Of a stretch of 64,000 nucleotides of DNA, positions 14,652 to 57,561 are shown piece by piece (position 1 is the stretch's first letter; each line of letters begins with the position of its first letter). Below the pieces are notes generated by a model, which searched no databases, had not been told where the DNA came from, and saw nothing but the letters and a program-made list of their open reading frames with translations. A program made the translations under genes and the position numbers. Origin of the DNA: Synechococcus sp. (GTDB taxonomy: Bacteria; Cyanobacteriota; Cyanobacteriia; PCC-6307; Cyanobiaceae); contig JBJBEO010000001.1 of assembly GCA_047284725.1 (NCBI GenBank), forward strand, positions 888,203 to 952,202, given 5' to 3'.

Positions 14652-15446
14652 CTACGAACGGTTGCGGTACCAATTGAAAAGCCAGTCGCTCAAACGTTTG
14701 CGTTGACCGGAGGGCAAAGATTCATTGGAGATGGCTCTTTGCTCTGGATCCTGTTCGTTGACAACTGTTGAGGGAGTGAAGGAGTTGTCGAAAAGGAGGG
14801 CTGTGTCAGGCTCGTCGTTGTTCTGTTGCTCAAAACTCAGTCCAGTTTCGAGTGTCTCATTGTGCATGGCGACCAGGTAATCATCATGGGTGTAATCGCT
14901 TTCGTCGTGATGATCAGAATCGATTTGAATTCTTGTGCCTGGGGATAATGTTTCGCTCATAACACTTGATTCATGATCGGACGTGTCATGGTCCAACCCA
15001 AGTGCATGTCCGATTTCGTGCATGAAGACAGACAGAAGATCAATTTGTTGTGCTGCTTCGCTGCCGCCGAGAGCGAGTCGTGTGCCATCTGGCTGAACCT
15101 GGTATTCACTGGAATCCAAGGGAGTGGAATCGATAAACCAGCCATGTCCTGATGCATCACGATCCATGGGGATTCGGGAGTAGGAGTAACTCGCCAAAGC
15201 CATCCCATCCCATCTAAATCGTCAACTCTGATGTCCATTGATTGGAGATCGTTGAGTTGTTGAGTGGTCATTGAATGGGATGTGGACCAGTGACGCACTG
15301 CAGCGTCGTAAACCGCTCGAATCAGATCAGGCTCTATTTCGGAGAGATCATGAACAAGGGGGGTGGTGAGGTGATGCCCCTTGTTGCCGTGCTGCCGTCA
15401 CCGTCAACCAAAGCTGAGAGTTGGCTGAATAGAAATCCTTTGTCAT
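14652..15446 (-). pseudogene. Frameshifted orphan paralogue of the giant protein's C-terminal HExGHxxGxxH domain
   Basis: Two frames align without gaps to the giant C-terminus once one unit of (CCATC)3 at 15200-15214 is removed; HEIGHALGLDH at 14988-15020; 5' end uncertain (possible second slip at G6, 15358-15363; candidate ATG 15446). Confidence 0.75.
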
Positions 15447-15682
15447 TGGTTCTGACTTCAAGTCGTCAAGCTTGCTACGGTTCCAGGCATAGAAAGAGTG
15501 CCAAATCTGTAAAACTCGTAAAAGGGGCATGCCAGTCTGGTCAACAAAGTTACAATTGAACGGTAAAGTGTCGTTTTTGGCCTGCGAATGAAGCAATGCT
15601 TGCGCAAGAGTTTTATTTTGCGACGCACTTCTCATCTCGTTACGGTTTGCAAGATCATCCTCAGCTACGAAACTCATCCTTG

Positions 15683-16753
15683 ATGACATCACTGCCGAGT
15701 CGCAACATAGATCTCTTTTCAGCACGCGAGACGTTTTCCGATTATTTAGTTGTTGATAGGTTTTTGCGTGACTTGGTGGGCATGCGTGGCCTGAAAACGG
15801 CCTTCGACCGACAAGTTGTCGATGCACTCGTCGATGGGCCGAAATCCATGACTGAGTTGACCAATCGCTTGGGTGCTGATCAAGCAGGAGCCCAACTCCT
15901 CTTAGGCATCCTTGCCGTAAGCGACGTGGTTGAACGAATCGGCGATAAGTTCATGTTGACGTCTAGCTTCAGGCAGGCACTCCAGTTTCGCGATCTTCTG
16001 GAAGCGAAGTTGGACTTCGCCGGTTTTGTCCTTCTTGACTTCATCGATAAGTTTGACTATTTGGTGAATGATTCTTCAAGGTTCCAGGGTGAGGCTCAAC
16101 TCTTTAGATTATTTGATTACCAGAAGGCAAAGAATCCCACAGTTCAGAGCTACGCCTGGACAAAGGTTTGGATAAGGCTCACGACTTCATTGACTCGCTA
16201 CGAAGCTAAAGCTGCACTCAATATCTATGATTTTGGTAAGCACAAAAATCTGCTTGATATCGGCGGCAATAGCGGTGAGTTTGTACTTCGTATCTGCAAG
16301 GCACACGATGATATGCGTGCCACCGTGATGGATCTTCCAGTCGTCTGCGAGTTCGGTCATGATCACATCCTGGTCGAGCCAGAGCGGGAAAGAATCGGAT
16401 TTTTGGCTGGTAGTGCTCTGATCGACCCGATTCCTCAGGGTTATGACCTTATCTGTTTCAAATCCATGTTGCACGATTGGCCTGATGGAGATGTTTGCCT
16501 GTTTTTGCAGCGCGCCGCTGAGGCCTTGGATCCTGGAGGGACGCTTTTGATCTACGAACGAGCCCCTCTCGAATTCACCAAACGTTCATTGTCAATAGGG
16601 CAACTTCCCGTCTTACTTTTTTCACGCTGGTATCGCACAGAGCAATTGTACTGTGTACAACTTGAAAACCTTGGTTTTAAAGACATCAAAGTGCACTATT
16701 TGCAGCTCGACAGCCCCTTCTTCATCGTGGCAGCACAAAAACCAGAGATTTGA
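15683..16753 (+). CDS. SAM-dependent O-methyltransferase (class I, Methyltransf_2 type with N-terminal dimerisation domain)
   Basis: LLDIGGNSGEF, MDLPVV, FKSMLHDWPD, ALDPGGTLLIYE; ATG 15683 preferred over 15596. Confidence 0.85.
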   Translation: MTSLPSRNIDLFSARETFSDYLVVDRFLRDLVGMRGLKTAFDRQVVDALVDGPKSMTELTNRLGADQAGAQLLLGILAVSDVVERIGDKFMLTSSFRQALQFRDLLEAKLDFAGFVLLDFIDKFDYLVNDSSRFQGEAQLFRLFDYQKAKNPTVQSYAWTKVWIRLTTSLTRYEAKAALNIYDFGKHKNLLDIGGNSGEFVLRICKAHDDMRATVMDLPVVCEFGHDHILVEPERERIGFLAGSALIDPIPQGYDLICFKSMLHDWPDGDVCLFLQRAAEALDPGGTLLIYERAPLEFTKRSLSIGQLPVLLFSRWYRTEQLYCVQLENLGFKDIKVHYLQLDSPFFIVAAQKPEI

Positions 16754-16756
16754 ATC

Positions 16757-17737
16757 ATGCATTCTTTCATAGGTCCTGAATCCTCAGTTGGTCCGAGATT
16801 TAATCCAACACGTCTGAAACATTTATTTCACTACGACGATTATGTTGAAGTGACTATGCACTTCAAGTGCAATCTGAAGTGCGTTCATTGCATGATAGAA
16901 AATACTATGGATTGGCTAGAGCCTGAAGGCCTGACTCGTCTCGAAGAAGTATGTGCCTATAACGACCAATATCGACGCTGGAGGGGAATTATCTTTACTG
17001 GTTCAGAAGTCACTCTTAATGCAGACTTGCCAAAGTGGGTAAATATGGCACGTCATCATGGTTTCGAGCGAGTGCGGATCCAGACCAACGGTATTCGATT
17101 GTCTGACTACGCATATTGCCGAGAGTTAATTGATGGCGGTGTCAATGAATTCTTCATAAGTGTCACAGCGGCCGATGCCGAAACCCATGATTCGATTACG
17201 AAAGTCAAGGGGTCGTTTGAAAAGACAATTCGTGGTTTGCATAATCTCGATTCATTCAATGATGTTGTCTCGATCACAAATACTGTCGTTACCACTCTCT
17301 CCTTCACACACTTGCCAATACTTGTGCGAGAACTTGGACACCTGAAGAACCTGGCTCGTATGGACTTCTGGAATTTCTGGCCGATGAATGAAAATGACGA
17401 CAAGGATCTGATTGCTTCTCATCTGGATGTCTTGCCATGCCTTCGAGACGCCATCGCAGAGGCACACAAGCTCGGTCGAGCCGTCGAAGTTAAGAACTTT
17501 CCCGAATGTTTGCTTGCTGATGATGGTCAATCATTAGATAATGGACAGCCAAAGCTTGTGATTGATCCAGCCTTCTGGCCTGAGTTTATGCGTAATGGAT
17601 TCAATCAGTGTGTCTTTCGTGACCAGTGTGGTTCTGTTAAATGTCTAGGTTTGAATACCGCTTATGTGAAGAAGTACGGATGGCACGAAGATGTTTTGGT
17701 GCCATTGCCTGTTCTGGAGTCCTTCGACAATGCATGA
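16757..17737 (+). CDS. Radical SAM enzyme, HxsC-like, with C-terminal Cys cluster
   Basis: CNLKCVHC (CxxxCxxC), FTGSEVT, IQTNG, NFPEC, CVFRDQCGSVKCLG. Confidence 0.85.
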   Translation: MHSFIGPESSVGPRFNPTRLKHLFHYDDYVEVTMHFKCNLKCVHCMIENTMDWLEPEGLTRLEEVCAYNDQYRRWRGIIFTGSEVTLNADLPKWVNMARHHGFERVRIQTNGIRLSDYAYCRELIDGGVNEFFISVTAADAETHDSITKVKGSFEKTIRGLHNLDSFNDVVSITNTVVTTLSFTHLPILVRELGHLKNLARMDFWNFWPMNENDDKDLIASHLDVLPCLRDAIAEAHKLGRAVEVKNFPECLLADDGQSLDNGQPKLVIDPAFWPEFMRNGFNQCVFRDQCGSVKCLGLNTAYVKKYGWHEDVLVPLPVLESFDNA

Positions 17738-18923
17738 ATCCTCTTCGATAAATGCTGATGCCGTTCGGATCTTTATTGAAGCAGACGGCATTGTGCTTGA
17801 GCTCGGGCACAAAGTAACCCCAGATGGAAGTGAATCTGATGTGATTAAAGGCCTATCTCGTATAAAGCTCACTCCACAGACCTTTCGTCGTTTTGGACTG
17901 GCATTGCATGATGCAATAAGTCTGTTGCCCAAAGAGTCTGTTCTTCGTTCTGGATCGATTCCGACTCCAACGCCACAACGCTCTTCCGCTGCAAAAGCCT
18001 CGCTGGAAGAGTTGCTTGATCCCACCATCAACCTTTCCTCATCCTCAGCGCCGACACCGATTTCAAGCCAGGATGCACAGCGGGTGTTCAAGCTGATTGC
18101 CAGTCTCGGTGCACCTTATGTCCATGAGCGCTCTTTTCGGTTCCGTGAAGGAGAGTTATTGCCCAATCGATTCCTGCTGACTGTTGGACGCTCAGGCAAC
18201 GGCAGCACTTCCGATGATGCTTTGATGGACCTATTCACTAACCTTTCCCTTCCTGCACCATTCCTCGAAGCTGCCCGCCAGCACATTTCGGCGGCCCGCT
18301 GTATACATGTTGGCTTTGAGGGAGACGGCGACAGTCCGCTGCTGAAGGTCTATTTGGAGATTGGAGGTCCTGACCAAATTAATCAGTCAACGCCTGATGC
18401 CGCAGTCCTTGAGCACATTGCGTACAAGTGGGACGTAAGAAACAGGGAACGACGAACCGTTGCTCGTTACTGGTGGTATCCATACCTAAATGCCAGTGAA
18501 TTGAAGAAACGAGTTGTTGAATTGTATGCAGATCATGATTTAGAGGCTCAGGATATTGCCCTTGGTGCCATTGAAATGGCAGCGCAAAAGATGCCTGAAC
18601 GTGACATTCACTACCTTGAGGTCGAAGAAGAGGGCAACCCAAGGCGTTCTTACTCGATCAATTTTTATGATGCGGGACTTCAGGTCCGGGATTTGCATAC
18701 ATTGCTGGCACGCATGAGAAACTATTTTGATGTATCGCCAGGGAAGTTTCAGATGCTCTATGACCAGATTAAGACAAGGCGTTTGGGACACATCGCTGGA
18801 GGAATTCACCGCAATGGAAAAGGCTTTTTTAATGTCTACTATGGTCCTCAGTTCATGGATTACGATTGTCAGGGCCATTGGCGCAGTGCTGTGTTTAGGG
18901 GCAAAGACAACTGCGATTTCTGA
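17730..18923 (+). CDS. DUF3467-like domain fused to a PatF/LynF-like (ABBA) prenyltransferase-type domain
   Basis: ATG overlaps the rSAM stop by 8 bp; N-terminal ~65 aa align to the DUF3467 at 20488; HERSFRFREGELLPNRFLL, VGFEG..LLKVYLE, FFNVYY. Confidence 0.6.
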   Translation: MHESSSINADAVRIFIEADGIVLELGHKVTPDGSESDVIKGLSRIKLTPQTFRRFGLALHDAISLLPKESVLRSGSIPTPTPQRSSAAKASLEELLDPTINLSSSSAPTPISSQDAQRVFKLIASLGAPYVHERSFRFREGELLPNRFLLTVGRSGNGSTSDDALMDLFTNLSLPAPFLEAARQHISAARCIHVGFEGDGDSPLLKVYLEIGGPDQINQSTPDAAVLEHIAYKWDVRNRERRTVARYWWYPYLNASELKKRVVELYADHDLEAQDIALGAIEMAAQKMPERDIHYLEVEEEGNPRRSYSINFYDAGLQVRDLHTLLARMRNYFDVSPGKFQMLYDQIKTRRLGHIAGGIHRNGKGFFNVYYGPQFMDYDCQGHWRSAVFRGKDNCDF

Positions 18924-18925
18924 CT

Positions 18926-19795
18926 ATGCATATCAACGACCGCTTCGAATATATCACTGAGAAAGATTTATATCATAATTATTGCCTCTGGCCCTACCTG
19001 CCAGTTACTGCTTCCATCGACAAGTTTCGCTCTATCAATCTTCTCTATCACGCTTTTGACGTTGCAGAAATCGATCACCGTATTTTTGATTTTGTCGAGG
19101 CGATACGTGATGGCATTGGCAGCTTCCGCACGGTGTGGGGAACTAAACTCATTAACAATAATTTGGCATGGGAATTTTACTTCTATGACTATGGGAGGCG
19201 TGTACGCGAGCTTTCGATCAGCAGGTTGATCAAGATTTTGGCGCCATTCACGCACTGCTCCGTTTCAGTCAACGAAAATATCAATTATTTTATGTTTTCG
19301 TTTGATGTCGATCAAGAGCTGATTACAGGTGCTCGTCAGCTTGATATTGTTCACATGTATCTCGGTAATGCTGGAAGCACTGTCTCCTCAGGAATTTCCT
19401 ACGCCCTGAGCCAGCAGTCATCCCGCCTCGAGAATCTGTATTACTTCTTCGAAGTGCCGTCCATGTTGCAACAGGTGATGGACAAGGTTGGTGACTCGGC
19501 CTACGTCGATGAAGCAGCGATTCCTATGGATTTTTTGGTGTGGCCGGAGCTTCGATCATGCACCACTATCTGTGTGGCCAACAAACAGAGCAATGACACA
19601 ATTTACTTTTCTGGGTGCACTGTAGATCAGCTTTTGTACTTTCTGATTCGGATTGGGTATCCAAGTAAGATCATTGACTTTGTGCAGTCTAATCGCAATA
19701 ATCTTGACCATCTTCTTTACGACGTGGGTTATGATTACCGCACGAAGGGTGATAAGGTTGAGATCGTCAAGAGTGGCTATTACGGGATATTTTGA
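18926..19795 (+). CDS. Hypothetical aromatic-rich protein, possible ABBA/PT-barrel fold
   Basis: 289 aa; starts 2 bp after the previous stop; five apparent beta-hairpins separated by helices; fold is inference. Confidence 0.6.
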   Translation: MHINDRFEYITEKDLYHNYCLWPYLPVTASIDKFRSINLLYHAFDVAEIDHRIFDFVEAIRDGIGSFRTVWGTKLINNNLAWEFYFYDYGRRVRELSISRLIKILAPFTHCSVSVNENINYFMFSFDVDQELITGARQLDIVHMYLGNAGSTVSSGISYALSQQSSRLENLYYFFEVPSMLQQVMDKVGDSAYVDEAAIPMDFLVWPELRSCTTICVANKQSNDTIYFSGCTVDQLLYFLIRIGYPSKIIDFVQSNRNNLDHLLYDVGYDYRTKGDKVEIVKSGYYGIF

Positions 19796-20418
19796 ATCAA
19801 TCCTATTCGACAAGAATAGTCGTGGCTGTTTCTGCACCGGTTGGTGGTGGTAAAACCTCTCTGGTGCGTGGTCTGGCGCAGGCTATGGATGGTGTTCCTT
19901 TTCATTTCGATCACTACGAAGACCTGACTCAATTGCCGCTTGAAGAAGTGAAGGCATGGCTCCATTTCGGTGCCGAGATTGCAGACCTTTCGATTCCCGC
20001 ACTGACGGATGACCTGATGGATCTGAAGCATGCCAGCTCACCGGCCGTACCCGCCAGTGGAGTGGCCATTCAAACCGCTCAATTTGTCTTTTTTGAGACC
20101 CCGTTTGCCCGGTGCCACCTTGAGTTAGATAATCTCATTGACTTAGCGATCTGGATTGACACACCTCTCGACGTCGCTTTGGCCCGCAACATACGGGAGT
20201 TCATGCGGCAACCTGAGTTGAGATCGAAATTGTCTGCGTGGCTTCCTGACTACCTTGATGGCTATCTCGACGCAGTGCGTGACATGCTGTTGATGCAGCA
20301 GGAGACTGTTGGTCGTGCAGCAGATATCACCCTTGATGGGACAGCCGATCTAGCGACAAACTTATCCATCGCAGAAAGAGAGATACGCAGGCTTCTGAAA
20401 AACAGATCATGCGACTGA
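19792..20418 (+). CDS. P-loop kinase, uridine/nucleoside-kinase-like
   Basis: VVAVSAPVGGGKTSL Walker A, FDHY, WIDTPLDVALAR, ADITLDG; TTG start overlaps previous TGA. Confidence 0.75.
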   Translation: MNQSYSTRIVVAVSAPVGGGKTSLVRGLAQAMDGVPFHFDHYEDLTQLPLEEVKAWLHFGAEIADLSIPALTDDLMDLKHASSPAVPASGVAIQTAQFVFFETPFARCHLELDNLIDLAIWIDTPLDVALARNIREFMRQPELRSKLSAWLPDYLDGYLDAVRDMLLMQQETVGRAADITLDGTADLATNLSIAEREIRRLLKNRSCD

Positions 20419-20487
20419 TATTTGACTCCTATTGGACAGTGTCTTCTTTCTGAATCAATGTGGGCAAAGCCTATGGCTCCGGTTCCT

Positions 20488-20781
20488 TTAACCTTTGAAT
20501 GCGCCGTAACGCTTGACATGCTCTGACAATACGGTTTGGCTGACCTTGGCTAGTTCCTTGGCGACAGATGGGGTTAGGTGAATTCGATCGGTGAGCTTAG
20601 CTTGCCACTCACCCTCAGTTAATCCGGGCTCAGTGCGTCCAAATAGCAAGGTTATATCCTCACCAGAGCACGACACATTGCAGACATCTGCGAAGGACGT
20701 TGACAGGTTCTTGTCGTCCCAGGGGGCTTTACGGCTCTGGCTAGAAAGTTGCATGCTCGCAGAGGAATTAGGGGGGGTCAT
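20488..20781 (-). CDS. DUF3467 domain protein
   Basis: WDDKNLSTSFADVCNVSCSGEDITLLFG...LTDRIHLTPSVAKEL...EHVKRYG; starts 22 bp after the giant gene stop. Confidence 0.8.
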   Translation of the reverse strand: MTPPNSSASMQLSSQSRKAPWDDKNLSTSFADVCNVSCSGEDITLLFGRTEPGLTEGEWQAKLTDRIHLTPSVAKELAKVSQTVLSEHVKRYGAFKG

Positions 20782-21253
20782 GAGAAGTTAATGGTAGTAA
20801 TAATCACTTCCGGCGAAAGAGGCCTAACAATGGATCCAAGAGCTCCTGCCCCCAGCCGAGAACGTGAAGCCTCCTTCTTGCCTCTGGGGCCGTAGGAATG
20901 TGATTTTTAATTCTCGCCTCTTTTAACGTGTTATCTGGACTCCTCCTGTCAGAGGTGACCTCGGCAGTAGTCAGTGTTGAAGTTTCCAGCTCAACATCTT
21001 GAACATCGATCGTGTCAAGGAGTCTGCGCTGCTCTGCGCTGAGTCGACGCTTCTGCTCCCAAATTGCAATCGCAGCAGCGCGTGTGTTCTCCAGAATCTG
21101 TGGCTGGATGTTTGGCAGCGATTTGCTCCCGTCCCCAGATTCAGTTAGCCTGTCTGCATCAGGATTCACGCTGGCGATGAGGTTTTCCTCATGCATCTCA
21201 GGCAGATGGCGCACACCAGCTTCCAGCATCTGTTCCATGAGCCCCTTCTCCTC

Positions 21254-44846: not shown

Positions 44847-47800
44847 AGGGACGCCTCGACATCGGCGCGCACATCGTTCAGGACGACGATGCCGCCGATG
44901 GCGATCGAATCCGACCCGCTGACGTTGAGACCCTGGGGGATCAGCTGGCTCTCGGGCACTTCCTTCCAGTACCCCAGGTCGCTGTAATTCAACCGACTCA
45001 GATCGCTCGAGCCGGCTAAGCCGCTGGCCGGGTCGATCCCGTCGGCCCCCATGAATTCATAGACAGAGCCGGCACTGCCGCTGATCTCGACCCAGTCGAG
45101 GCTGCTGCCGTAGTCCAGGGTCACCAGATCGACAACCGTCGGGGGATCCTGCTCCTCGCCCACGTACTGATACACGCTGCCGACGGTGCCGTCGCCTGTG
45201 GCCTCCTCGGTCACCTCCACGACCATTCCGTCGATCAGGCCCTGCTCATTCGTGCTCAGACCCAGCTGCGGTGTCGTGCTGTGGGTCGGCACCGCGTAAT
45301 CATCGGCCAGCCGCACCCGATCACCGAACTCCAGGGTCACGCTGGTGGCGTCGGAGGTGTGGTCCACCTCGAGGAGATCATTGATGCTTTCCTGCAGCAC
45401 CGACGCGCCACCGTCATTGGTGGTGGTCGATGAGGAGACGATCTTGGTGTTGGAGTAAACGCCGGCGCTGTCGCTGGCGGTGATTGCGACGCTGCCACCA
45501 GCCTCCACCGCGGTGCTGACGGCATCTCCGCCATCGCTGTCCTCCACGTAGGCCCGCGTGGCGGTGCTGACCTTGTTGCTCGCCAGAATCGCACTGGTGC
45601 TCATGCCCATCGCACCGAACAGGGCCGAGGCTTCTGAGATCGCGGCGTTGGAGACGGTCGCGTTCAGCCCGGCATCGTTCACCGCGCTCACCGTCAGGTC
45701 GCCGCTGAGCTTGAGGGTGGAATCCTCGATCGCGGCGATCACCGTGGCCGGATCCTCACGGCCGATCAAGCTGTCGCCCACCAACGCATCAATGGCGTTG
45801 AAGAGCACGTTCTGCGACTGCCAGCCGATCGTGTTGAAGGCCAGCGTGACCCCGACCGCCGTATCCCCCGAGCTGGTCGAGCCCAAGATGGTGGCATCGA
45901 TGGCGGAGGTGTTCTCGGCCGTCACCGCAACAGCGCCGCCGATGGCGGTTGTGCCGTCACCGATCTCGCTGTCGGTGATGGTGGCCTCGGTCGTGCTCTG
46001 CACCAGGTTGGTGGCGATCGTGCCGTTGACCGCCAGGGAGGTGCCGGTGCCGTAGGCACTGCCACCGGAGGAGGACACCTCACTGAGGATCGTGGCGGCG
46101 ATCTGCGCATTGGAGAGCGCCGCGACTGTCAGATCACCGCCCGCCGCAACATCGGCGTTATCGATGAAGACGTCGACACGGCTTCTGACATCGTTGCGCA
46201 CGACCACACCGCCGATGGCCACCGAATCGGAGCCCGTCACATTGCCGACATTGGGGATGTAGTCGGCGGTGCTTTCGGTCACCTTGACCCAATCGCCGGA
46301 GGTCTCGTAATCAATCGTGCCCAGATCAATCTGGGCGGCTTGTGCCCCCTCGTAGCGGTAGATCCCGCCCTCATCTCCACCGTTGCTGTAACCGGGACCC
46401 ACCCGCACCCTGGTGGATTCGGCCGCACCCTGCCGGCTCCAGAACGTTGTGTCGTTGTAGTTCTGGCTGGCCAGATCCAGCGTGTCGTCAACAAGGTCAC
46501 CGTCACCGAGGTATTCATAGACCGCACCTTCCTCGCCGCTGATCTCCTGCCACAGTGTTGCGTCGGTGAAATCCTGCGCGGTGAGGTCGAGGGTTCCGCC
46601 CTGTCCGACGTATCGGTAATAGCCGCTGCCGACGCGCACGATGGTGGTGTCCTTCACCACGGTGGCACTCTCGGCACCGCTGTCGGTGGTGGTGTAGTCG
46701 GGGGTGATGGCCTCGAAATAGCCGTAGTCGACCTTGACCCGATCGCCGAGTGCGACCACGGTGCTGCCCTCACCGGTGCTGTGGTCGTAGCTGGGCAGCC
46801 CGACGAGCACGGACCCCGATTCGGTGGTGAAGTCGTACTGCCTGTCCAGGTTGGCCAGCGCGTCTTGCAGCAGGCTCACGCCGCCGTCATTGGTGGTCAC
46901 CGACACCGAGGTGATGTCGCTGCTGGAGAGGACGCCGGCCTCGTCGCTGGCCGTGACCGTCACATGGCCGAGCGCACTGACATCGCCCTGGGCGCCGCTG
47001 AAGGCGATGAAGGCATCCGCCGCGCTGCTCACCAGGTTGCTGGCCAGCACCCCGGAGGTGCTCATCCCCGTCGCCCCGAAGAGCGCCGACGCTGCACTGT
47101 CGGCCTGATTGGTGATGGTTGCGTCCAGCTGCGCCGCATTGCGTGCCGTCACGCTGATGTCAGCGGCGGCGGTGAGCTGGCTGTCGCGGCTGTAGGCCGT
47201 GACCTGCGCCGGTGCCTCCTGGCCGAGCACCGAATCACCGAGCAGGGCATCGAGCGTGTTGAACAGCAGGTTCTGGGGCTGCCAGCCGATCGTGTTGAAG
47301 GCGAGCGTGACCCCGACCGCCGTATCCCCCGAGGTGGTGGCACTCAGCACCGACGCGTCGATGGCGGAGGTGTTCTCGGCCTCCACCGCGATGGTGCCCG
47401 CCTCGGTGGTGCCGCCCGCTGCGTCCTGGGCTTCCACCGTGCTGTCGGTGATCCGCGCGCTCGCCGCACTCAACACCGTGTTGGTGGCGATGAGGCCGTT
47501 GATCGCCAGGGAGGTGCCGGTGCCGTAGGCGCTGCCGCCGGAGGAGGAGGCGGCGCTCTCTGCCGTGGCGGTGATGGCGGCGATCTCGCTGGCCTCGACC
47601 GTGACATGGCCGTCCCTGGCCAGGACGGTGGCGTCGTTGATGTAGGCATCGACGGTGCCGCGCACGTCGTTGCGCACCACCAGGCCGCCGATGCCGATCG
47701 AATCCGAACCGCTGACGTTCAGGCCACTGGGGATGATGTTGGTCTGATCGAGCGGCTTCCAGAGCCCATAGTCGCTGTAATCCTGGGCGCCGAGATCACG

Positions 47801-50800
47801 GGCCTGGCTCTCACCCATGTACTGGAAGATCTGACCTGCCGGATCGAAGGAGCTATCAACAACTTCGTTGAAGCTGTAGTCATCATCTACACGGACCCGA
47901 TCACCGAAGTTCAGCTCAGGCGTGCCTGACTGGCTGGTGAACTGATAGTCATCGAGCAGTGTCTGTGCCAGGCCATTGAGAATGCCGGCACCACCGTCAT
48001 TGCTCGTTGACGACGCCGACACCACCTGGCTTGTGGCCTCGATCGTCGCGCTGTCGGCCGCCGAGACCGCAATGCCGCCGGCCGCAACGTCCGTCGAGAG
48101 ATCCAGCCAGTTGGTCGTGTCGGTTGTGTAGTTCTGGCTGCCGGTGCTCAGATCCACCGACGACTGAAGATTCTCGCCCTGATATTGGTAGTAGTCACCG
48201 TTGAACCCGACAATGTCGTTCTGGTTCAGCTGGGTCGGTGTATCGCTGTCTGTATAAAGCGTGCTCCCCGGGAGCAGTGTGGGGCTGCTAGTGCCAATGT
48301 CGAGCCAATCATTGTTACTGGCATAGTTCTGTGCTGTGTTGCTCAGATCCAGCGACGACTCGATTGGCGCTGTGCCCTGATATTCATAGACATCGCCGGA
48401 ATCGAGGCGTACCCGATCCCCGATGTTCAAGGTCACCGGACCATCGCTCGGGGCGTAATCCCAGGCATGCCCGAGATGGGCATCCGTCGTGGTGCTGACC
48501 ATGTTGCCGGCCAGCACACCGGCGAAGCTCATGCCGGTGGCGCCAAAGAGGGCGGAAGCCGCCGAGGTGGCCTCGTTGCCGACCGTGGCGGTGATCGCCG
48601 CGCCGGTCTCGGCATTCACGGTGACGCTGCCCACCGCATCGACCGAGGTGTTGTCGATCAGCGCCAGCGTCTCGAAGGGATCCTCGCTGCCGATGCTGCT
48701 GCCGAGCAGCGTGTCGATCGCATTGAAGAGAACGTTCTGGGACTGCCAGCCGATCGTGTTGAAGGCCAGCGTCACCCCCACCGCGGTGTCGCCGCTGGAG
48801 GTGGCGCTCAGGTTGCTCGCCTCGATCGCAGCGGTGTTGAGCGCCGTGACCTCAAGATCGCCGCCCAGGGGGGTGAGGGTGCTGTCCTGGACAAGCGCAC
48901 GCGCTGATCCCAGCACGGTGTTGGTGGCGATCACGCCATTGACCGCCAGGGAGGTGCCGCTGCCGTAGGCACTGCCGCCGGAGGACGATACCGTCGCATC
49001 GGCCGTCGCCTGGATCGTGGCGTTCTCCGACGCGCTCACCACCACGTCATCACCGGCCTGCAGGGTGATGGAGTTCAGGGACGCCTCGACATCGGCGCGC
49101 ACATCGTTCAGGACGACGATGCCGCCGATGGCGATCGAATCCGACCCGCTGACGTTGAGACCCTGGGGGATCAGCTGGCTCTCGGGCACTTCCTTCCAGT
49201 ACCCCAGGTCGCTGTAATTCAACCGACTCAGATCGCTCGAGCCGGCTAAGCCGCTGGCCGGGTCGATCCCGTCGGCCCCCATGAATTCATAGACAGAGCC
49301 GGCACTGCCGCTGATCTCGACCCAGTCGAGGCTGCTGCCGTAGTCCAGGGTCACCAGATCGACAACCGTCGGGGGATCCTGCTCCTCGCCCACGTACTGA
49401 TACACGCTGCCGACGGTGCCGTCGCCTGTGGCCTCCTCGGTCACCTCCACGACCATTCCGTCGATCAGGCCCTGCTCATTCGTGCTCAGACCCAGCTGCG
49501 GTGTCGTGCTGTGGGTCGGCACCGCGTAATCATCGGCCAGCCGCACCCGATCACCGAACTCCAGGGTCACGCTGGTGGCGTCGGAGGTGTGGTCCACCTC
49601 GAGGAGATCATTGATGCTTTCCTGCAGCACCGACGCGCCACCGTCATTGGTGGTGGTCGATGAGGAGACGATCTTGGTGTTGGAGTAAACGCCGGCGCTG
49701 TCGCTGGCGGTGATTGCGACGCTGCCACCAGCCTCCACCGCGGTGCTGACGGCATCTCCGCCATCGCTGTCCTCCACGTAGGCCCGCGTGGCGGTGCTGA
49801 CCTTGTTGCTCGCCAGAATCGCACTGGTGCTCATGCCCATCGCACCGAACAGGGCCGAGGCTTCTGAGATCGCGGCGTTGGAGACGGTCGCGTTCAGCCC
49901 GGCATCGTTCACCGCGCTCACCGTCAGGTCGCCGCTGAGCTTGAGGGTGGAATCCTCGATCGCGGCGATCACCGTGGCCGGATCCTCACGGCCGATCAAG
50001 CTGTCGCCCACCAACGCATCAATGGCGTTGAAGAGCACGTTCTGCGACTGCCAGCCGATCGTGTTGAAGGCCAGCGTGACCCCGACCGCCGTATCCCCCG
50101 AGCTGGTCGAGCCCAAGATGGTGGCATCGATGGCGGAGGTGTTCTCGGCCGTCACCGCAACAGCGCCGCCGATGGCGGTTGTGCCGTCACCGATCTCGCT
50201 GTCGGTGATGGTGGCCTCGGTCGTGCTCTGCACCAGGTTGGTGGCGATCGTGCCGTTGACCGCCAGGGAGGTGCCGGTGCCGTAGGCACTGCCACCGGAG
50301 GAGGACACCTCACTGAGGATCGTGGCGGCGATCTGCGCATTGGAGAGCGCCGCGACTGTCAGATCACCGCCCGCCGCAACATCGGCGTTATCGATGAAGA
50401 CGTCGACACGGCTTCTGACATCGTTGCGCACGACCACACCGCCGATGGCCACCGAATCGGAGCCCGTCACATTGCCGACATTGGGGATGTAGTCGGCGGT
50501 GCTTTCGGTCACCTTGACCCAATCGCCGGAGGTCTCGTAATCAATCGTGCCCAGATCAATCTGGGCGGCTTGTGCCCCCTCGTAGCGGTAGATCCCGCCC
50601 TCATCTCCACCGTTGCTGTAACCGGGACCCACCCGCACCCTGGTGGATTCGGCCGCACCCTGCCGGCTCCAGAACGTTGTGTCGTTGTAGTTCTGGCTGG
50701 CCAGATCCAGCGTGTCGTCAACAAGGTCACCGTCACCGAGGTATTCATAGACCGCACCTTCCTCGCCGCTGATCTCCTGCCACAGTGTTGCGTCGGTGAA

Positions 50801-53800
50801 ATCCTGCGCGGTGAGGTCGAGGGTTCCGCCCTGTCCGACGTATCGGTAATAGCCGCTGCCGACGCGCACGATGGTGGTGTCCTTCACCACGGTGGCACTC
50901 TCGGCACCGCTGTCGGTGGTGGTGTAGTCGGGGGTGATGGCCTCGAAATAGCCGTAGTCGACCTTGACCCGATCGCCGAGTGCGACCACGGTGCTGCCCT
51001 CACCGGTGCTGTGGTCGTAGCTGGGCAGCCCGACGAGCACGGACCCCGATTCGGTGGTGAAGTCGTACTGCCTGTCCAGGTTGGCCAGCGCGTCTTGCAG
51101 CAGGCTCACGCCGCCGTCATTGGTGGTCACCGACACCGAGGTGATGTCGCTGCTGGAGAGGACGCCGGCCTCGTCGCTGGCCGTGACCGTCACATGGCCG
51201 AGCGCACTGACATCGCCCTGGGCGCCGCTGAAGGCGATGAAGGCATCCGCCGCGCTGCTCACCAGGTTGCTGGCCAGCACCCCGGAGGTGCTCATCCCCG
51301 TCGCCCCGAAGAGCGCCGACGCTGCACTGTCGGCCTGATTGGTGATGGTTGCGTCCAGCTGCGCCGCATTGCGTGCCGTCACGCTGATGTCAGCGGCGGC
51401 GGTGAGCTGGCTGTCGCGGCTGTAGGCCGTGACCTGCGCCGGTGCCTCCTGGCCGAGCACCGAATCACCGAGCAGGGCATCGAGCGTGTTGAACAGCAGG
51501 TTCTGGGGCTGCCAGCCGATCGTGTTGAAGGCGAGCGTGACCCCGACCGCCGTATCCCCCGAGGTGGTGGCACTCAGCACCGACGCGTCGATGGCGGAGG
51601 TGTTCTCGGCCTCCACCGCGATGGTGCCCGCCTCGGTGGTGCCGCCCGCTGCGTCCTGGGCTTCCACCGTGCTGTCGGTGATCCGCGCGCTCGCCGCACT
51701 CAACACCGTGTTGGTGGCGATGAGGCCGTTGATCGCCAGGGAGGTGCCGGTGCCGTAGGCGCTGCCGCCGGAGGAGGAGGCGGCGCTCTCTGCCGTGGCG
51801 GTGATGGCGGCGATCTCGCTGGCCTCGACCGTGACATGGCCGTCCCTGGCCAGGACGGTGGCGTCGTTGATGTAGGCATCGACGGTGCCGCGCACGTCGT
51901 TGCGCACCACCAGGCCGCCGATGCCGATCGAATCCGAACCGCTGACGTTCAGGCCACTGGGGATGATGTTGGTCTGATCGAGCGGCTTCCAGAGCCCATA
52001 GTCGCTGTAATCCTGGGCGCCGAGATCACGGGCCTGGCTCTCACCCATGTACTGGAAGATCTGACCTGCCGGATCGAAGGAGCTATCAACAACTTCGTTG
52101 AAGCTGTAGTCATCATCTACACGGACCCGATCACCGAAGTTCAGCTCAGGCGTGCCTGACTGGCTGGTGAACTGATAGTCATCGAGCAGTGTCTGTGCCA
52201 GGCCATTGAGAATGCCGGCACCACCGTCATTGCTCGTTGACGACGCCGACACCACCTGGCTTGTGGCCTCGATCGTCGCGCTGTCGGCCGCCGAGACCGC
52301 AATGCCGCCGGCCGCAACGTCCGTCGAGAGATCCAGCCAGTTGGTCGTGTCGGTTGTGTAGTTCTGGCTGCCGGTGCTCAGATCCACCGACGACTGAAGA
52401 TTCTCGCCCTGATATTGGTAGTAGTCACCGTTGAACCCGACAATGTCGTTCTGGTTCAGCTGGGTCGGTGTATCGCTGTCTGTATAAAGCGTGCTCCCCG
52501 GGAGCAGTGTGGGGCTGCTAGTGCCAATGTCGAGCCAATCATTGTTACTGGCATAGTTCTGTGCTGTGTTGCTCAGATCCAGCGACGACTCGATTGGCGC
52601 TGTGCCCTGATATTCATAGACATCGCCGGAATCGAGGCGTACCCGATCCCCGATGTTCAAGGTCACCGGACCATCGCTCGGGGCGTAATCCCAGGCATGC
52701 CCGAGATGGGCATCCGTCGTGGTGCTGACCATGTTGCCGGCCAGCACACCGGCGAAGCTCATGCCGGTGGCGCCAAAGAGGGCGGAAGCCGCCGAGGTGG
52801 CCTCGTTGCCGACCGTGGCGGTGATCGCCGCGCCGGTCTCGGCATTCACGGTGACGCTGCCCACCGCATCGACCGAGGTGTTGTCGATCAGCGCCAGCGT
52901 CTCGAAGGGATCCTCGCTGCCGATGCTGCTGCCGAGCAGCGTGTCGATCGCATTGAAGAGAACGTTCTGGGACTGCCAGCCGATCGTGTTGAAGGCCAGC
53001 GTCACCCCCACCGCGGTGTCGCCGCTGGAGGTGGCGCTCAGGTTGCTCGCCTCGATCGCAGCGGTGTTGAGCGCCGTGACCTCAAGATCGCCGCCCAGGG
53101 GGGTGAGGGTGCTGTCCTGGACAAGCGCACGCGCTGATCCCAGCACGGTGTTGGTGGCGATCACGCCATTGACCGCCAGGGAGGTGCCGCTGCCGTAGGC
53201 ACTGCCGCCGGAGGACGATACCGTCGCATCGGCCGTCGCCTGGATCGTGGCGTTCTCCGACGCGCTCACCACCACGTCATCACCGGCCTGCAGGGTGATG
53301 GAGTTCAGGGACGCCTCGACATCGGCGCGCACATCGTTCAGGACGACGATGCCGCCGATGGCGATCGAATCCGACCCGCTGACGTTGAGACCCTGGGGGA
53401 TCAGCTAGCTCTCGGGCACTTCCTTCCAGTACCCCAGGTCGCTGTAATTCAACCGACTCAGATCGCTCGAGCCGGCTAAGCCGCTGGCCGGGTCGATCCC
53501 GTCGGCCCCCATGAATTCATAGACAGAGCCGGCACTGCCGCTGATCTCGACCCAGTCGAGGCTGCTGCCGTAGTCCAGGGTCACCAGATCGACAACCGTC
53601 GGGGGATCCTGCTCCTCGCCCACGTACTGATACACGCTGCCGACGGTGCCGTCGCCTGTGGCCTCCTCGGTCACCTCCACGACCATTCCGTCGATCAGGC
53701 CCTGCTCATTCGTGCTCAGACCCAGCTGCGGTGTCGTGCTGTGGGTCGGCACCGCGTAATCATCGGCCAGCCGCACCCGATCACCGAACTCCAGGGTCAC

Positions 53801-53905
53801 GCTGGTGGCGTCGGAGGTGTGGTCCACCTCGAGGAGATCATTGATGCTTTCCTGCAGCACCGACGCGCCACCGTCATTGGTGGTGGTCGATGAGGAGACG
53901 ATCTT
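44847..53905. repeat. Near-perfect intragenic tandem repeat; period 4230 bp (1410 aa); ~2.14 copies
   Basis: Offset 4230 throughout (44941 = 49171 = 53401); duplicated ORF-track entries in several frames; identity ends at 44846/49076 and 53906/49676; only difference noticed is at 53407. Confidence 0.95.
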
Positions 53906-56551
53906 TGAATTTGAATAGATACCCGACTCATCCGTGGCACGGACTATGGCATTTCTGACAGCATTCACATCGGTCGTGATCGAGTCATCAGTGTCCTGAT
54001 CAGCGATATAGGCGAATGCACCACTATTGATCTTGTTGGATGCGAAAATCCCTCCAGAGCCAACGCTCGATGCGCCGAAGATGCTGTCGGCAGTGCTTGC
54101 GGCTGCATTACTGACCGTTGCGTTGAACTTGCTCTTGGCGTCGGCACTGAGCAGCACATCTTGTGCCGAGACGACGCTGGAGTCGATAATGTATGCGCTC
54201 ACGTCGGAGCGTTCGAAGCTTCCAGGGCCAGGGCCAAGAAGAGCATCGAGCGTCTGGATACCAGGCACGACGCGCCAGCCTATGGAGTTGAAGGCAACTG
54301 AGGCACCTAGGCTGAATCCGGTTCCGCCCAAGGAGATCTCGGGTGTTTGAGATGTCGCCGAAGCGCCCGATTTTGCGTCAACGCCTGATGTGTCCTCAGC
54401 CCTAACAAGTACATCGCCACTTGTCAGCGTTTTGATATCACTGTCGTTCTCAATGTAGGCAGTGGTACTGCCGATCAGTGTGTTGGAGGAATATGTTCCG
54501 CCGATGCTGATGCTTCCTGTGAAAGGTAGTGATGCAGCAACCGAAGTGGTTTTCGCTTGCGCACCCAACTGCGCTTGCTTGGTCGCTTCGATTGTGATAT
54601 CGGCACCGGTCGCCTCCAAGGCGGAATTGGTGATGAACGCTTCGACGTTCCGATCCAACAGATTCTGCGCCGATGCAACATTCACCGAGACCGGCAGGAC
54701 GACTGAATCGAGGTTGACGATCTGTTCCGGTGCTGCCGCCGTGAGCATCGCTAGATCGTTCGCGGCAACTGATACTCCGCCGGCTCCGGCATTCACCGAG
54801 CTTCCTTCGATCGAAGCCTTCACGTCACCATCGATCTCGTTCAGCGCAGAAACGGCAAAAGCGCTGTAGTTGGTTTGTGTGGTGGCGTCTATCGAAAGTC
54901 CACCTACATTGATGGTATTAGTGGAATTCTTGATTGATGCCACCGCGCTCTCGGTGAACCGATTCACAGTCGAAATCGTCGACGCTGAACGCACCTTGCC
55001 CTGGGTCGTTGCCGACAGAGAGAACGTTGTTGCCGTGATGCTGCCGCCATCAACGTGGACACTCGCGCTTGAATCCGCCGTGAGGTCAATGGGAAGAGGC
55101 GTGGAAATGTTGATGTCACGTTTCACCGTGGCACTAGCGGTCACATTGCCTGTGGCGTTGATGTCACCAGCGATGTTGATGCTGGCCTGAAGGTTGCTTA
55201 CATTGGCAGCATTGGTGATCTGGTTTGATTCTTCTGCGATCGCGTTAAAAAGTACGCTGCCCAGGCCCGATAGGCTGGCCCCAGTCGCCACATTGATTCT
55301 TTCTGCGTGGATCTCCAGGTTGTTCCCTTCGAGATCAACAGTTCCTGTGAGCACCACCGAGTCGGTGCCCGCGCCGCCGCGAATTGTTAGCTTGGCGTCA
55401 ATGTCAGCCGTTGCGATCTCGAGGACGTCGTCGGCGCCGCCGAGGTCGATGATCAGCTCGGTGGTCGGCTTGACGAAATAAATGGTCTCGATGGTGGGGC
55501 TGACGTCCGGGTCGTTGCGCAGCACCAGATCGCTGGTGTTGGTGCTGTCGTCCTCGAGAATCAACGTGTCAGCAAGCGCCGCCGCTGGAGCCACCGTCTG
55601 CGGATTTTCGTTGGATCCGGCGTTGCCGGCGCTGTTCGCCGCGATTAGATCCGCGTCGATGGTGAGCGTCGCCACCGCGCTGTTGAGCGTGATCGGCTCA
55701 AGACCTTCGTAGTTGACCGTCTGCCCGTCGAGCGTCACTGAACCAGAATGCGGGCCGGATGCCTCGAAGCCGACGTTTGTATAGCTTTCTCCAACGAACA
55801 CAAGGCTGTCGAAGCCACCGTCGCCACCGTCGATACCGCCGCTGATGGCTCCTTGTTGCTCAAAGACAAACGTGTCTTCGTTGTCCGTGCCACCGGTGAG
55901 TTTCTCAACACCAGAAAATTGCACCACTGTGTTCACGTTGCCCTGATTGAGGGCGGTGACTGTCCATAGGCTGTCCATGCCGGGGCCGAACAGGGTGTCC
56001 GTCCCCAGGCCACCATCGAAATGCAGGCTTCCCCCGACCGCACCGAGGGCATTGATCAGCTCAGAACTAACGGTTAAAGCGTCATCGCCCTCTCCCAGTG
56101 CAACCGTGACACCAGCGGCTGTCAGAGGTGCGAGAACGATGACCTCCCCTGCTTGAACCGTTGCTGTGAGCTCACCGGCGTCGTTGGCATCAAGGGCAAG
56201 CGCCTGGCCTAGAGAGTCACCAACCAGTGAAATCTCACCACTGAGATCGTCGATCAGCCAATTGATGCCACTGGATTGAAGCGACGAACTTTCCTGAGGC
56301 GGACTGCCACCGTCAATGATGGGATCATGGGGCGAATCACTCAGCAAGTTCTCAGATACCTCGCCTTCAATTTCGGCTTCGGGGGTATCAACGGCTACCA
56401 ATAATTCGCTGTCGATTGAGCCTGAGTCCAGGAGCGACTCGCCAAGCTGAGGCCCGGATGAGTCACTCTCCAGCGCCGCTTCCTCCTCAAGTCCAGGCAG
56501 TAAATAGCCTTCTTGGAGTGCTTCCAGGGAAGGATCTTGAGGCACAGCCAT

Positions 56552-56805
56552 GGCTGAACGAATCGCCTAATCCTTTACTCATAAAGGGGCCAGCTTTGGC
56601 ACGCAATGTCGCATCCGCTTTTAAGTGGGCATGCCTAAAATCAGTGTTTAATCGGATTCTCACCAGTCTTTAAGATTCAAGTTTTTTAGTTGAGCTATAA
56701 GCATTTTGAAGTCTTAATTTGTCGCTTCAAATATTAAAAAACCGTGAGCAAATGTTCAATAATTTCTCGCTTTTGTTATGACTCAAGGGCCTTATTTCTT
56801 TGGTG
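56552..56805. promoter_or_regulatory. AT-rich divergent promoter region between the giant gene and sapC
   Basis: Head-to-head genes; strongly AT-rich sequence at 56640-56800; individual boxes not assigned. Confidence 0.55.
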
Positions 56806-57561
56806 ATGGCTCCACAGCTGCTGTTTTACAACGATGTTGTTCCTCTGAATAAGGAGCGTCATCAGGGCTGGTCTCTTAAGCAGGTTGATGATTATTCGTT
56901 TGCAGACAAGGCCAACTCTGTCCCTCTGATGTCTGTTGAGTTCTTCCAGGCCTCCGCTGATTATCCAATTGTCTTTGCTGGCGACGAAGAAGTCGTTTCT
57001 CCCGTGCTGTTGCTCGGATTGCAGCAGGCTCAGAATTTATTCCTGCAAAGCAATGGGTCATGGAGTGGTGGTTACATACCCGCCTTTATCAGAAGGTATC
57101 CATTCGTATTTACTCGCTCTGATGACGGTGAGCAATACTATCTATGCATCGATGAGTCGCATCCAGGTTTCAATCAATACGGTGAAGGTGAGGCTTTGTT
57201 GAACGAAGATGGTAATCCTACGGACTTCACCGACAACATCCTCAAGTTTCTGAGTAGCTACCAATATGAGTTCCAGAGGACGCAGGCATTTTGCAAGAAG
57301 CTGAAGGAGCTCAATCTCCTGGAGGCAAAGCAAGCTGATATTTCCCTTCCGGATGGTACCAAGAAGTCCTTGAAAGGTTTTTATACTGTTGAGCGACAAC
57401 GCCTGGCATCACTGTCGTCTGAGTCCATCGTGGAGCTTGTTCGGTCGGGTTACTATGAGATGATTTGTAGCCATCTCGCTTCATTGCGTAACTTCAAGCT
57501 TCTCAGTGATCTCAGCAATGAGCGAGTTAGCGAAAGTGGGGAATTGCATGCTGTGGTGTAG
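56806..57561 (+). CDS. sapC: SapC family protein
   Basis: LFYNDVVPLNKERH, VPLMSVEF..AS.DYPIVF, LLGL....NLF....W...YIPAFIRRYPF, LCIDE, GFYTVE..RL, HLASL.NF. Confidence 0.9.
   Translation: MAPQLLFYNDVVPLNKERHQGWSLKQVDDYSFADKANSVPLMSVEFFQASADYPIVFAGDEEVVSPVLLLGLQQAQNLFLQSNGSWSGGYIPAFIRRYPFVFTRSDDGEQYYLCIDESHPGFNQYGEGEALLNEDGNPTDFTDNILKFLSSYQYEFQRTQAFCKKLKELNLLEAKQADISLPDGTKKSLKGFYTVERQRLASLSSESIVELVRSGYYEMICSHLASLRNFKLLSDLSNERVSESGELHAVV

Follow-up and report, generated by a model that had tools for sequence, protein, structure and literature searches.

A giant exoprotein gene and its companion enzyme cassette in a Synechococcus genomic island: a gene partnership recurring across bacteria

Introduction

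What is a compact enzyme operon doing beside a gene of almost 12,000 codons? The question is raised by a genomic island of Synechococcus sp. (assembly GCA_047284725.1, contig JBJBEO010000001.1), contained in a stretch of 64,000 nucleotides (nt; positions 888,203 to 952,202 of the forward strand) that is referred to here as the window. The island spans approximately 14.6-57.6 kb of the window and is distinct in composition from its flanks. It carries a giant exoprotein gene with RTX and LktA_tand_53 repeats (20804-56551, minus strand; 11,915 codons before the final stop), a divergent gene of the SapC family, a small DUF3467 gene, a five-gene enzyme operon (15596-20418, plus strand) and a relic of the 3′ end of the giant gene. 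The operon encodes an O-methyltransferase, a radical S-adenosylmethionine (SAM) enzyme, two proteins designated X and Y, and a kinase-like protein; together with its homologues elsewhere it is called the cassette.

To our knowledge, marine picocyanobacteria and many other bacteria commonly carry giant surface proteins, and almost nothing is known about how these mature. The initial annotation of the island proposed that DUF3467 is a docking adaptor through which the operon enzymes modify the giant protein before it is exported. Every part of the island that it listed is present where it had been placed, with four amendments. The analysis reported here demonstrates that the partnership between the cassette and giant genes is real and recurs across many bacterial groups, and the island is best explained as a copy of this widespread partnership, gained horizontally. 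No description of the cassette or of its link to giants was found in the literature searched (subscription journals and bioRxiv supplements lay outside the search).

Conservation of the gene neighbourhood

Species-representative genomes were scanned once with an X-family motif, giving 121 pattern matches, of which 33 were confirmed, and 32 loci (designated by L numbers). The survey samples only X homologues bearing the exact motif, and partner genes were counted by local searches with the window proteins. Y was present in 26 of the 32 loci, the radical SAM enzyme in 22, the methyltransferase in 20 and the kinase in 7. A giant open reading frame (ORF) lies beside the cassette or X in 16/32 loci, a proportion that should be far above chance, given the general rarity of giants of this family. 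Standalone DUF3467 genes, counted with a trimmed profile built from standalone proteins only, were found in 12 loci, and SapC genes stand beside the cassette in four (L005, L009, L010 and L031). The taxa concerned include Acidobacteriota, Acetobacteraceae, Stellaceae, Burkholderiales, Solirubrobacteraceae, Cyanobacteriota, Dormiibacterota, Desulfobacteraceae, Planctomycetaceae, Gammaproteobacteria, Chitinivibrionales, Hydrogenophilaceae and Magnetococcales.

The giants adjoin the cassette in three ways. N-terminal parts with LEPR-XLL and/or LktA_tand_53 matches follow downstream on the same strand in L002, L006, L007, L011, L013, L015, L016, L018 and L019, LEPR-XLL giants are divergent in L027, L029, L030 and L032, and the C-terminal ends of RTX-type giants lie directly upstream in L009, L024 and L025. 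All giant ORFs in the surveyed loci extend past the fetched DNA. In these neighbourhoods, 15 of the 17 real ORFs of at least 1000 amino acids (aa) found across the 32 loci are LEPR-XLL/LktA/RTX giants. The C-terminal third of the window giant matches the giant ends adjoining the cassette in L009 (phmmer, E = 4e-218), L024 and L025 (E = 0 for both).

The gene order usual elsewhere is DUF3467, O-methyltransferase, radical SAM enzyme, DUF3467-X, Y and sometimes the kinase. The standalone DUF3467 gene immediately precedes the methyltransferase gene in 11 loci and immediately follows it in L020, and most relatives thus have DUF3467 within the enzyme operon. The window is rearranged: DUF3467 exceptionally stands behind the giant, and the operon and the giant gene are convergent.

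At least one of the three companions (giant, SapC or DUF3467) occurs in 23/32 loci. Of the nine loci that have none, L008, L021 and L022 are on contigs no longer than 4.9 kb, in L001 and L026 the DNA stops at most 0.6 kb from the cassette on one side, and four are well flanked. The neighbourhood search proposed in the initial annotation, which asked whether operon homologues usually occur away from such genes, did not refute the link: the co-occurrence holds for giants and for DUF3467, whereas SapC is only an occasional companion and the four well-flanked loci lack all three.

Enzymes of the operon

The operon was described as tightly coupled, and the junctions between its five genes (+3, -8, +2 and -4 nt) bear this out. 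The first gene (15596-16753) encodes a class I O-methyltransferase (Methyltransf_2, with a dimerisation domain; Pfam PF00891, E = 6e-23) that is 42-56% identical to cassette homologues in 20 loci. Its nearest solved relatives are Plu4895, DSYB, MmcR and DnrK (E of about 1e-19 to 1e-16). The second gene (16757-17737) encodes a MoaA/HxsC-like radical SAM enzyme with a CX3CX2C motif (Pfam PF04055, E = 1.4e-17) that falls outside the curated families. HxsC4 is its best NCBIfam match, in line with the HxsC likeness named in the initial annotation, but the score is far under the family cut-off (102.6 bits against 500), as is that for HxsC (59.3 against 267.9). Judged by these scores the enzyme is not a member of the HxsC/HxsC4 family, and none of the Hxs partner genes (hxsA, hxsB, hxsD) is found in the operon. 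The last gene (19792-20418) encodes a P-loop kinase-like protein resembling uridine kinase and PRK08233, with the Walker A motif GGGKTS. It is under the cut-off for every family (NCBIfam PRK08233, 88.7 bits against 198; Pfam PRK, weak match).

Proteins X (17730-18923) and Y (18926-19795) gave no match in Pfam and NCBIfam searches, nor did BLASTP match one to the other. Structural models, predicted by AlphaFold2 with family alignments as input, reached a predicted local distance difference test score of 87.3 for X and 96.5 for Y. Both models show alternating helix-pair and strand-pair units closed into a ten-strand antiparallel barrel, i.e. a PT-barrel (ABBA fold). In X the barrel domain is preceded by an N-terminal domain (approximately residues 11-64) discussed in the next section. 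Invariant Lys, Arg, Tyr, His and Glu residues are located on predicted barrel strands of both proteins.

When the models were compared with the PDB using Foldseek, cyanobactin peptide prenyltransferases ranked first and other ABBA prenyltransferases came next (E = 1e-7 to 1e-4, 8-16% identity). The best matches of X were LimF, PagF, KgpF and PatF (E = 9e-08 to 5e-06; template modelling (TM) scores 0.34-0.54), and those of Y were KgpF, DciF, AmbP3 and LimF (E = 3e-07; TM 0.45-0.56), with a Foldseek probability of 1.00 for X and Y against LimF, PagF, KgpF and DciF. Neither protein belongs to the prenyltransferase sequence family (Pfam PTase_Orf2 or its relatives), and in the look-alike Atlas clusters of Y the PTase_Orf2 share is a minority of 11-41%. 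Because the fold matches have no counterpart in sequence-profile searches, the likeness of X and Y to prenyltransferases is one of fold, not of family. The resemblance to PatF/LynF noted in the initial annotation was accordingly confirmed for the fold, in two genes, and not for the sequence family.

The Y family comprises 426 cluster representatives, including fusions of X with Y and of two radical SAM domains with Y. Fusion proteins found in the databases are X+Y (P0122), DUF3467+X+X (P0006, P0039 and a set of about 700 aa) and two radical SAM domains followed by Y (P0157). From such proteins X and Y are predicted to act jointly. X is also duplicated, in tandem in L008 (1910-4328) and within single DUF3467+X+X proteins of about 700 aa (P0006, P0039, P0272-P0292), and the barrel may function as a pseudo-dimer. 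Many X homologues of about 370 aa (P0043, P0046, P0055 and others) are labelled 'tryptophan halogenase' by one source, though they have no Pfam domain; the label was probably transferred from the annotation of genes nearby.

The DUF3467 module and SapC

The standalone DUF3467 gene (20488-20781, minus strand) begins 22 nt past the stop codon of the giant gene, directly behind it as had been claimed, and its product matches Pfam PF11950 with 47.1 bits (gathering threshold 25; E = 2.5e-12). A second module of this kind had been proposed in one of the enzymes. In the model of X, the N-terminal 60-70 residues form three strands and one helix. The window X has no PF11950 match and gave no BLASTP hit to the window DUF3467 protein; however, alignment of 13 standalone DUF3467-like proteins with 14 X N-termini by hhalign gave a probability of 96.1% (E = 3e-09), and PF11950 is carried by 12 of the 59 X-family members scanned. 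In addition, the profile built from standalone DUF3467 proteins only matches the X N-terminus in 16 loci and also that of the window X, at E = 0.0026. These comparisons support a predicted DUF3467-like domain at the N-terminus of X, which would be a module common to the operon and the giant unit.

The C-terminal tails of standalone DUF3467 proteins are short and variable and have no conserved core or cleavage motif; what is conserved is the whole folded domain. A search for further DUF3467 fusions among longer proteins gave no match, which is weak evidence, and an Atlas search for DUF3467 relatives that lack PF11950 produced no lead. Sequence searches of the PDB with SapC and DUF3467 yielded nothing significant. 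A prediction of the complex of the L013 DUF3467 protein, X and giant residues 1-90 scored 0.00; it was run without controls and speaks neither for nor against binding. In L012, two proteins of 323 and 368 aa (4551-5522 and 6844-7950) end in a DUF3467 domain, and their N-terminal parts belong to no family; they are putative further fusion partners of the module.

The SapC gene (56800-57561, plus strand) encodes a protein matching PF07277 over profile positions 1-218 of 220 (253.5 bits, gathering threshold 28.9; E = 2e-75). It is divergent from the start of the giant gene across 248 nt, and the head-to-head arrangement of the initial annotation is thereby confirmed. On a contig of a cyanobacterial metagenome-assembled genome (L010, 7362-9833), a SapC gene whose product is 63% identical to that of the window stands head-to-head with an ORF of 426 aa of no known family. 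The arrangement parallels the sapC-giant pair of the window, and the contig ends shortly beyond.

The giant exoprotein gene

The giant had been described as an RTX-type protein of about 11.9 thousand residues. The length is borne out by the 11,915 codons, as is the RTX character (Pfam HemolysinCabind, E = 4.1e-33, in 8 stretches within the last 3642 residues; partial match to NCBIfam RTX_toxin), but the gene is split by one in-frame TAG codon (53405-53407) and reads as two ORFs. The N-terminal part (53405-56551, minus strand) has 1048 codons and ends in the TAG. The downstream part (20804-53332, minus strand), 10,842 aa from its first GTG, carries LktA_tand_53 repeats, RTX repeats and a C-terminal matrixin-like domain. 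LktA_tand_53 (NF012206), which has a repeated unit of 53 residues, was matched in three segments with 57.8, 293 and 175.8 bits (cut-off 50).

The TAG is located in a tandem repeat with a unit of 4230 bp (44844-53905). Two copies are complete and agree at all but 1 of 4230 positions; of the third there are about 600 nt. The stop lies within the partial third copy, and both other copies have CAG at this position. The TAG may be a genuine nonsense mutation, or it may be an error within a repeat whose assembly is difficult. In the former case the window giant may have been inactivated by the premature stop, and the system is perhaps inactive in this genome.

The C-terminus of the giant matches Peptidase_M10 (26.8 bits, cut-off 24) and contains the zinc-binding motif HExxHxxGxxH. 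By family match and motif, this domain and its relic are predicted to be matrixin/metzincin-like. The motif is degenerate in the L009 giant, and the region is unconserved in L024.

The label LEPR-XLL, used for giants in the initial annotation, is right for the cassette-adjoining relatives and does not fit the window giant. The NCBIfam model (NF012209) matches 11 cassette-linked giants, and a LEPxEPRxLLSAD motif is visible in all 13 aligned N-termini, those of L002 and L013 included. The N-terminal 1048 aa of the window giant gave no match to the model at E<=0.01, and a local profile of 13 relatives' N-termini had zero matches in any of the three frames of this region. The latter result led us to drop the possibility that the true N-terminus (a basic stretch, then LEPR-XLL) is encoded upstream of 56551 in a different frame. 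Even so, the window giant is collinear in its N-terminal region with P0222, a canonical LEPR-XLL giant (27-32% identity). P0222 (3798 aa), an LEPR-XLL/LktA-repeat homologue of the window giant, ends in the C-terminal half of Y (residues ~3623-3797). This giant-Y fusion could be genuine, or it could be an artefact of assembly or gene calling (a chimeric call).

Proposed function of the cassette

The giant LktA-repeat/RTX exoprotein is one partner of the system and the companion cassette the other, with SapC as an occasional accessory. We hypothesize that the cassette enzymes covalently modify the giant polypeptide in the cytoplasm, ahead of its export. The chemistry would consist of alkyl- or prenyl-type transfer by the two barrels, combined with radical and methyl chemistry and possibly phosphorylation, while the free DUF3467 protein and the module fused to X would bind the substrate in its unfolded state, as the recognition domains of peptide-modifying pathways do. 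Such tailoring before export, with DUF3467 as the docking module, is suggested by gene context and fold; it is our preferred explanation, although we rate its chance as slightly short of even, far lower than that of the gene partnership itself, which we hold to be highly probable. A more specific version appears rather doubtful. In it, megadalton LEPR-XLL/RTX giants would mature in the way of ribosomal natural products: DUF3467, free and fused, would form a new class of substrate-recognition module and pass the nascent, still unfolded chain to the paired PT-barrel alkyl or prenyl transferases, the radical SAM enzyme and the O-methyltransferase. The giants would receive a conserved lipid-like or cross-linked mark required for surface retention or function, and SapC would be one more tailoring enzyme instead of a secretion component.

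Tailoring is preferred because the giant is often the very next gene and because enzymes directed at proteins occur in the same operons. Genes of the GT41 family lie between the giant and X in L027, L030 and L032 (the L027 protein shows weak likeness to the protein N-glucosyltransferase model NF049992; E = 1.7e-15, 56.7 bits against a cut-off of 1000), and TPR proteins with a weak Glyco_transf_9 match are found in L009, L013 and L015. In L024 a flavoenzyme gene follows X, with CmlS halogenase as the best match of its product and the protein-tryptophan maturases QhpG, GoxB and LodB next, all under the cut-off. Further reasons are that the best fold matches of X and Y act on peptides, that DUF3467 occurs both free and fused in the manner of a recognition domain, and that P0222 is a giant with half of Y at its end, albeit possibly an artefact. 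The absence of scaffold-forming enzymes and of a classical precursor also favours tailoring. The window contains no core scaffold-forming enzyme (nonribosomal peptide synthetase (NRPS), polyketide synthase (PKS) or terpene synthase), and neither NRPS nor PKS genes were found in the ORF maps of the relatives. As stated in the initial annotation, no small precursor is evident: none besides DUF3467, itself conserved as a folded domain, is conserved in the window or the ORF maps, and the window lacks a short precursor with a leader and variable core such as defines a cluster for ribosomally synthesized and post-translationally modified peptides (RiPPs).

Several observations weigh against tailoring. 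With TM scores of 0.34-0.56, X and Y resemble prenyltransferases only modestly in fold, and sequence-profile searches of the PDB with both proteins found no prenyltransferase. All 60 solved relatives listed for the methyltransferase bear names of small-molecule enzymes (COMT/DnrK-type), and the substrates of the three solved relatives of the radical SAM enzyme, which include GDGT-MAS and BlsE, are lipids or nucleosides. Across phyla, identity reaches 61-71% for the radical SAM enzyme in all but one of 22 loci (36% in L020) and 45-67% for Y. Such strong conservation is easier to reconcile with a fixed small substrate than with hypervariable giants, unless the giants share one conserved target site; the motif E..EPR.L.SAD, invariant among cassette-linked giants, is a candidate for it. 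The window giant has neither this motif nor a match to the LEPR-XLL model, and it carries the in-frame TAG. Finally, L003, L004 and L028, which have the cassette, and L023, which has X, Y and the radical SAM enzyme, contain no giant, SapC or DUF3467 despite flanks of about 7-10 kb on each side, and L028, with its TonB-dependent receptor, tryptophan halogenase and WelO5-like enzyme, looks like a metabolite cluster.

The enzyme relatives, the conservation of the radical SAM enzyme and Y, and the giant-free loci just listed are equally points in favour of a cassette that makes a small molecule, e.g. a prenylated and methylated aromatic or indole-type compound. The giant would then have this compound as its ligand, cargo or cofactor, or would merely be co-mobilised, with DUF3467 as a scaffold or chaperone of the enzyme complex. 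This explanation also draws on extended clusters with WelO5-like enzymes, tryptophan halogenases, B12-radical SAM enzymes, 2OG-FeII_Oxy_5 proteins and, in L028, a TonB-dependent receptor, and on the overlap with the SapC/tryptophan halogenase/TonB-receptor neighbourhood described in the relevant passages of Iyer et al. 2010 (PMC2938197). It has to accommodate giants of one family in 16/32 loci, often as the next gene on the same strand, GT41 genes within the same operons, peptide prenyltransferases as the best fold matches, and a window free of NRPS, PKS and terpene synthase genes. On balance we regard a small-molecule product as the main alternative, yet an unlikely one.

In this genome the unit could be a decaying remnant, in which the giant is a pseudogene by virtue of the TAG, the orphan copy is a relic and the operon is idle or serves another target. 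Decay would account for the in-frame stop, for the frameshifted relic, for the missing LEPR-XLL motif, for a gene order that departs from the canonical one and for the lack of secretion genes (ABC transporter, HlyD-type adaptor, TolC) among the 30 window ORFs scanned. Yet the five operon genes, DUF3467 and SapC are of full length, with family matches from end to end, and the remaining 10,842 codons of the giant are still open. Moreover, the TAG is a single base in a 4.2-kb repeat with otherwise 1 differing position in 4230, where an assembly or sequencing error is likely. We therefore hold the remnant explanation to be possible, but not probable.

The DUF3467 protein might itself be the substrate, as a precursor or scaffold peptide, with the giant as a mere neighbour. 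Its gene of about 75-150 codons occupies the usual place of a precursor gene, directly upstream of the methyltransferase gene in 11 loci (downstream in L020), and is the sole conserved small ORF. A precursor role is nevertheless improbable, given that the conserved part is the whole folded domain, that the short variable tails lack a core or cleavage motif, that X, an enzyme, bears the same domain at its N-terminus, as is typical of recognition domains and not of precursors, and that L001, L003, L004, L025 and L028 have the cassette and no standalone DUF3467. Least likely by far, and already disfavoured, is that the adjacency reflects chance hitch-hiking of unrelated island cargo: marine picocyanobacterial islands do gather unrelated accessory genes and giant ORFs, according to the available text of PMC2441476, but the same adjacency is found in 16/32 loci from many bacterial groups and in differing gene orders.

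Tailoring of the giant and synthesis of a metabolite would both be new biology. If the enzymes act on the giant, the chemistry of peptide natural products reaches megadalton proteins; if the cassette makes a metabolite, an unknown compound is genetically tied to giant exoproteins. The survey delimits an enzyme cassette, compact and portable, that accompanies one giant family, and it provides a first functional context for four uncharacterised families (DUF3467, SapC, X and Y).

Comparison with known systems

A secreted giant with dedicated, co-encoded enzymes is already known in kind; for the conserved giant-cassette partnership no description was found in the literature searched. In RTX toxin operons of the hlyCABD type, the exoprotein is modified covalently in the cytoplasm by an acyltransferase encoded by a neighbouring gene (HlyC) before export, and the RtxA protein of Kingella is reportedly acylated. 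The window differs in having no HlyC-type acyltransferase and no ABC/MFP export genes among the ORFs scanned, and in a substrate of about 12,000 residues, the modification of which is proposed from context. Its enzymes are a radical SAM enzyme, an O-methyltransferase, two PT-barrel proteins and a kinase. The HMW1 adhesin is another very large, secreted protein, tailored in the cytoplasm by the neighbouring GT41 N-glycosyltransferase HMW1C/NGT. GT41 genes stand beside the relatives in L027, L030 and L032 and are absent from the window, and both the export route and the chemistry differ.

X and Y have the same ten-strand PT-barrel as the cyanobactin F prenyltransferases (PatF, LynF, PagF, LimF, KgpF and DciF), at the TM scores and low identities given above. 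Unlike cyanobactin systems, the cassette has no cyanobactin protease, heterocyclase or precursor, and it uses two different barrels as a pair, at times joined in X+Y or X+X proteins. Recognition elements of RiPP pathways (PqqD-like domains) occur free or fused to tailoring enzymes. By analogy, DUF3467 may be compared with them, as it heads the operon as a small free gene and has a homologous domain attached to an enzyme; it is unlike PqqD-like domains in its fold of three strands and one helix, predicted in the X model, and in that no leader peptide was identified.

As in the window, sapC stands beside genes for surface or giant proteins in Campylobacter fetus (sapCDEF) and Chlorobium chlorochromatii (Cag_662-665). 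In the latter, sapC (Cag_662) stands ahead of the giants Cag_663 and Cag_665, with a TolC gene in the same group, and SapC is treated as a secretion component (10.64898/2026.03.19.712371). The terms 'radical SAM' and 'methyltransferase' occur 0 times in the available text of this preprint, which likewise does not mention a tailoring operon. Iyer et al. 2010 assigned a neighbourhood of SapC, tryptophan halogenase, TonB-receptor and 2OG-dioxygenase genes to a halogenated metabolite, unknown but siderophore-like, and predicted an enzymatic role for SapC (PMC2938197, relevant passages). Loci L024, L025 and L028 resemble these neighbourhoods in adding tryptophan halogenase-type, 2OG-FeII_Oxy_5 and TonB-receptor genes to the cassette. 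The window has no such extra enzymes, and giants are absent from the SapC and tryptophan halogenase passages of that paper.

Giant ORFs are well known from picocyanobacterial islands (PMC2441476, PMC9387257, available parts). The window resembles the islands of SwmB and other marine Synechococcus giants in size and setting, with a repeat protein of about 11,000 residues encoded in a compositionally deviant region. A companion enzyme cassette is not mentioned for the SwmB-type islands in the available parts of these two papers.

Island setting and additional genes

The GC content of the operon part of the island is 46-47%, against 60-65% in the flanks. The window enzymes have their closest homologues in the acidobacterial locus L001, consistent with horizontal acquisition. 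A tRNA scan, an Rfam scan and a search for border repeats, run on the window, found no marker of the island edges, and promoter and terminator scans at the borders gave no excess over shuffled sequence. The left flank carries cyanobacterial-type core genes (leuA-like, folD and genes for a polyprenyl synthase and a RecD-like helicase), as does the right flank (genes for a SfLAP-family protein and a histidine phosphatase, cobQ-like, opcA and zwf).

Genes for HlyD, TolC and SecA-like proteins lie beside relatives in L002, L009, L026 and L031 and are absent from the window. Near the cassette, one or two HlyD-type adaptors accompany an HExxH intramembrane metalloprotease of about 715 aa in L009 (12115-17711), L026 (551-9714) and L031 (4410-8566). 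Matches to HlyD- or MFP-type proteins were obtained in these three loci, while L005 (5507-7654) has only the metalloprotease match. A SecA paralogue is found in L009 and L026 and a TolC-type gene in L026. The adaptor-metalloprotease set, no part of which lies in the window, may be machinery dedicated to exporting and processing LEPR-XLL giants.

A variant operon occurs in L027 (7646-12765) and L030. It consists of GT41, a gene of 241-313 aa of no known family, X, an FAD_binding_4 oxidase resembling cytokinin dehydrogenase and DprE1, and an AAA_33 kinase; L032 matches it as far as the oxidase, and L029 has an equivalent, X with a divergent LEPR-XLL giant. Its X has no DUF3467 domain, and Y, the radical SAM enzyme and the O-methyltransferase are missing from it. 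The extended clusters, located in L015 (5040-7436), L024 (10752-14103), L025 (11821-17044) and L028 (11719-20433), add WelO5-like, B12-binding radical SAM, 2OG-FeII_Oxy_5, Methyltransf_11 and tryptophan halogenase-type flavoenzyme genes, and L028 has a TonB-dependent receptor as well.

The relic of the giant 3′ end (14652-15346, minus strand) was initially taken for an orphan copy of the C-terminal domain of the giant. The similarity is real (38-41% identity over 93-113 aa), but the copy is not intact, being diverged and frameshifted. With the last 1000 aa of the giant as the query, tblastn matched two relic frames (residues 734-826, E = 4e-08, and 778-866, E = 2e-17), so that the similarity spans both, from about 14931 to about 15346; the annotated ORF (14652-15203) is the downstream frame. 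No start codon precedes the upstream part. The relic retains a Peptidase_M10 match (37.4 bits, cut-off 24) and HExxHxxGxxH in translation. At the point where the frame changes there is a run of three GATGG units (~15197-15211), a lesion of the slipped-strand type.

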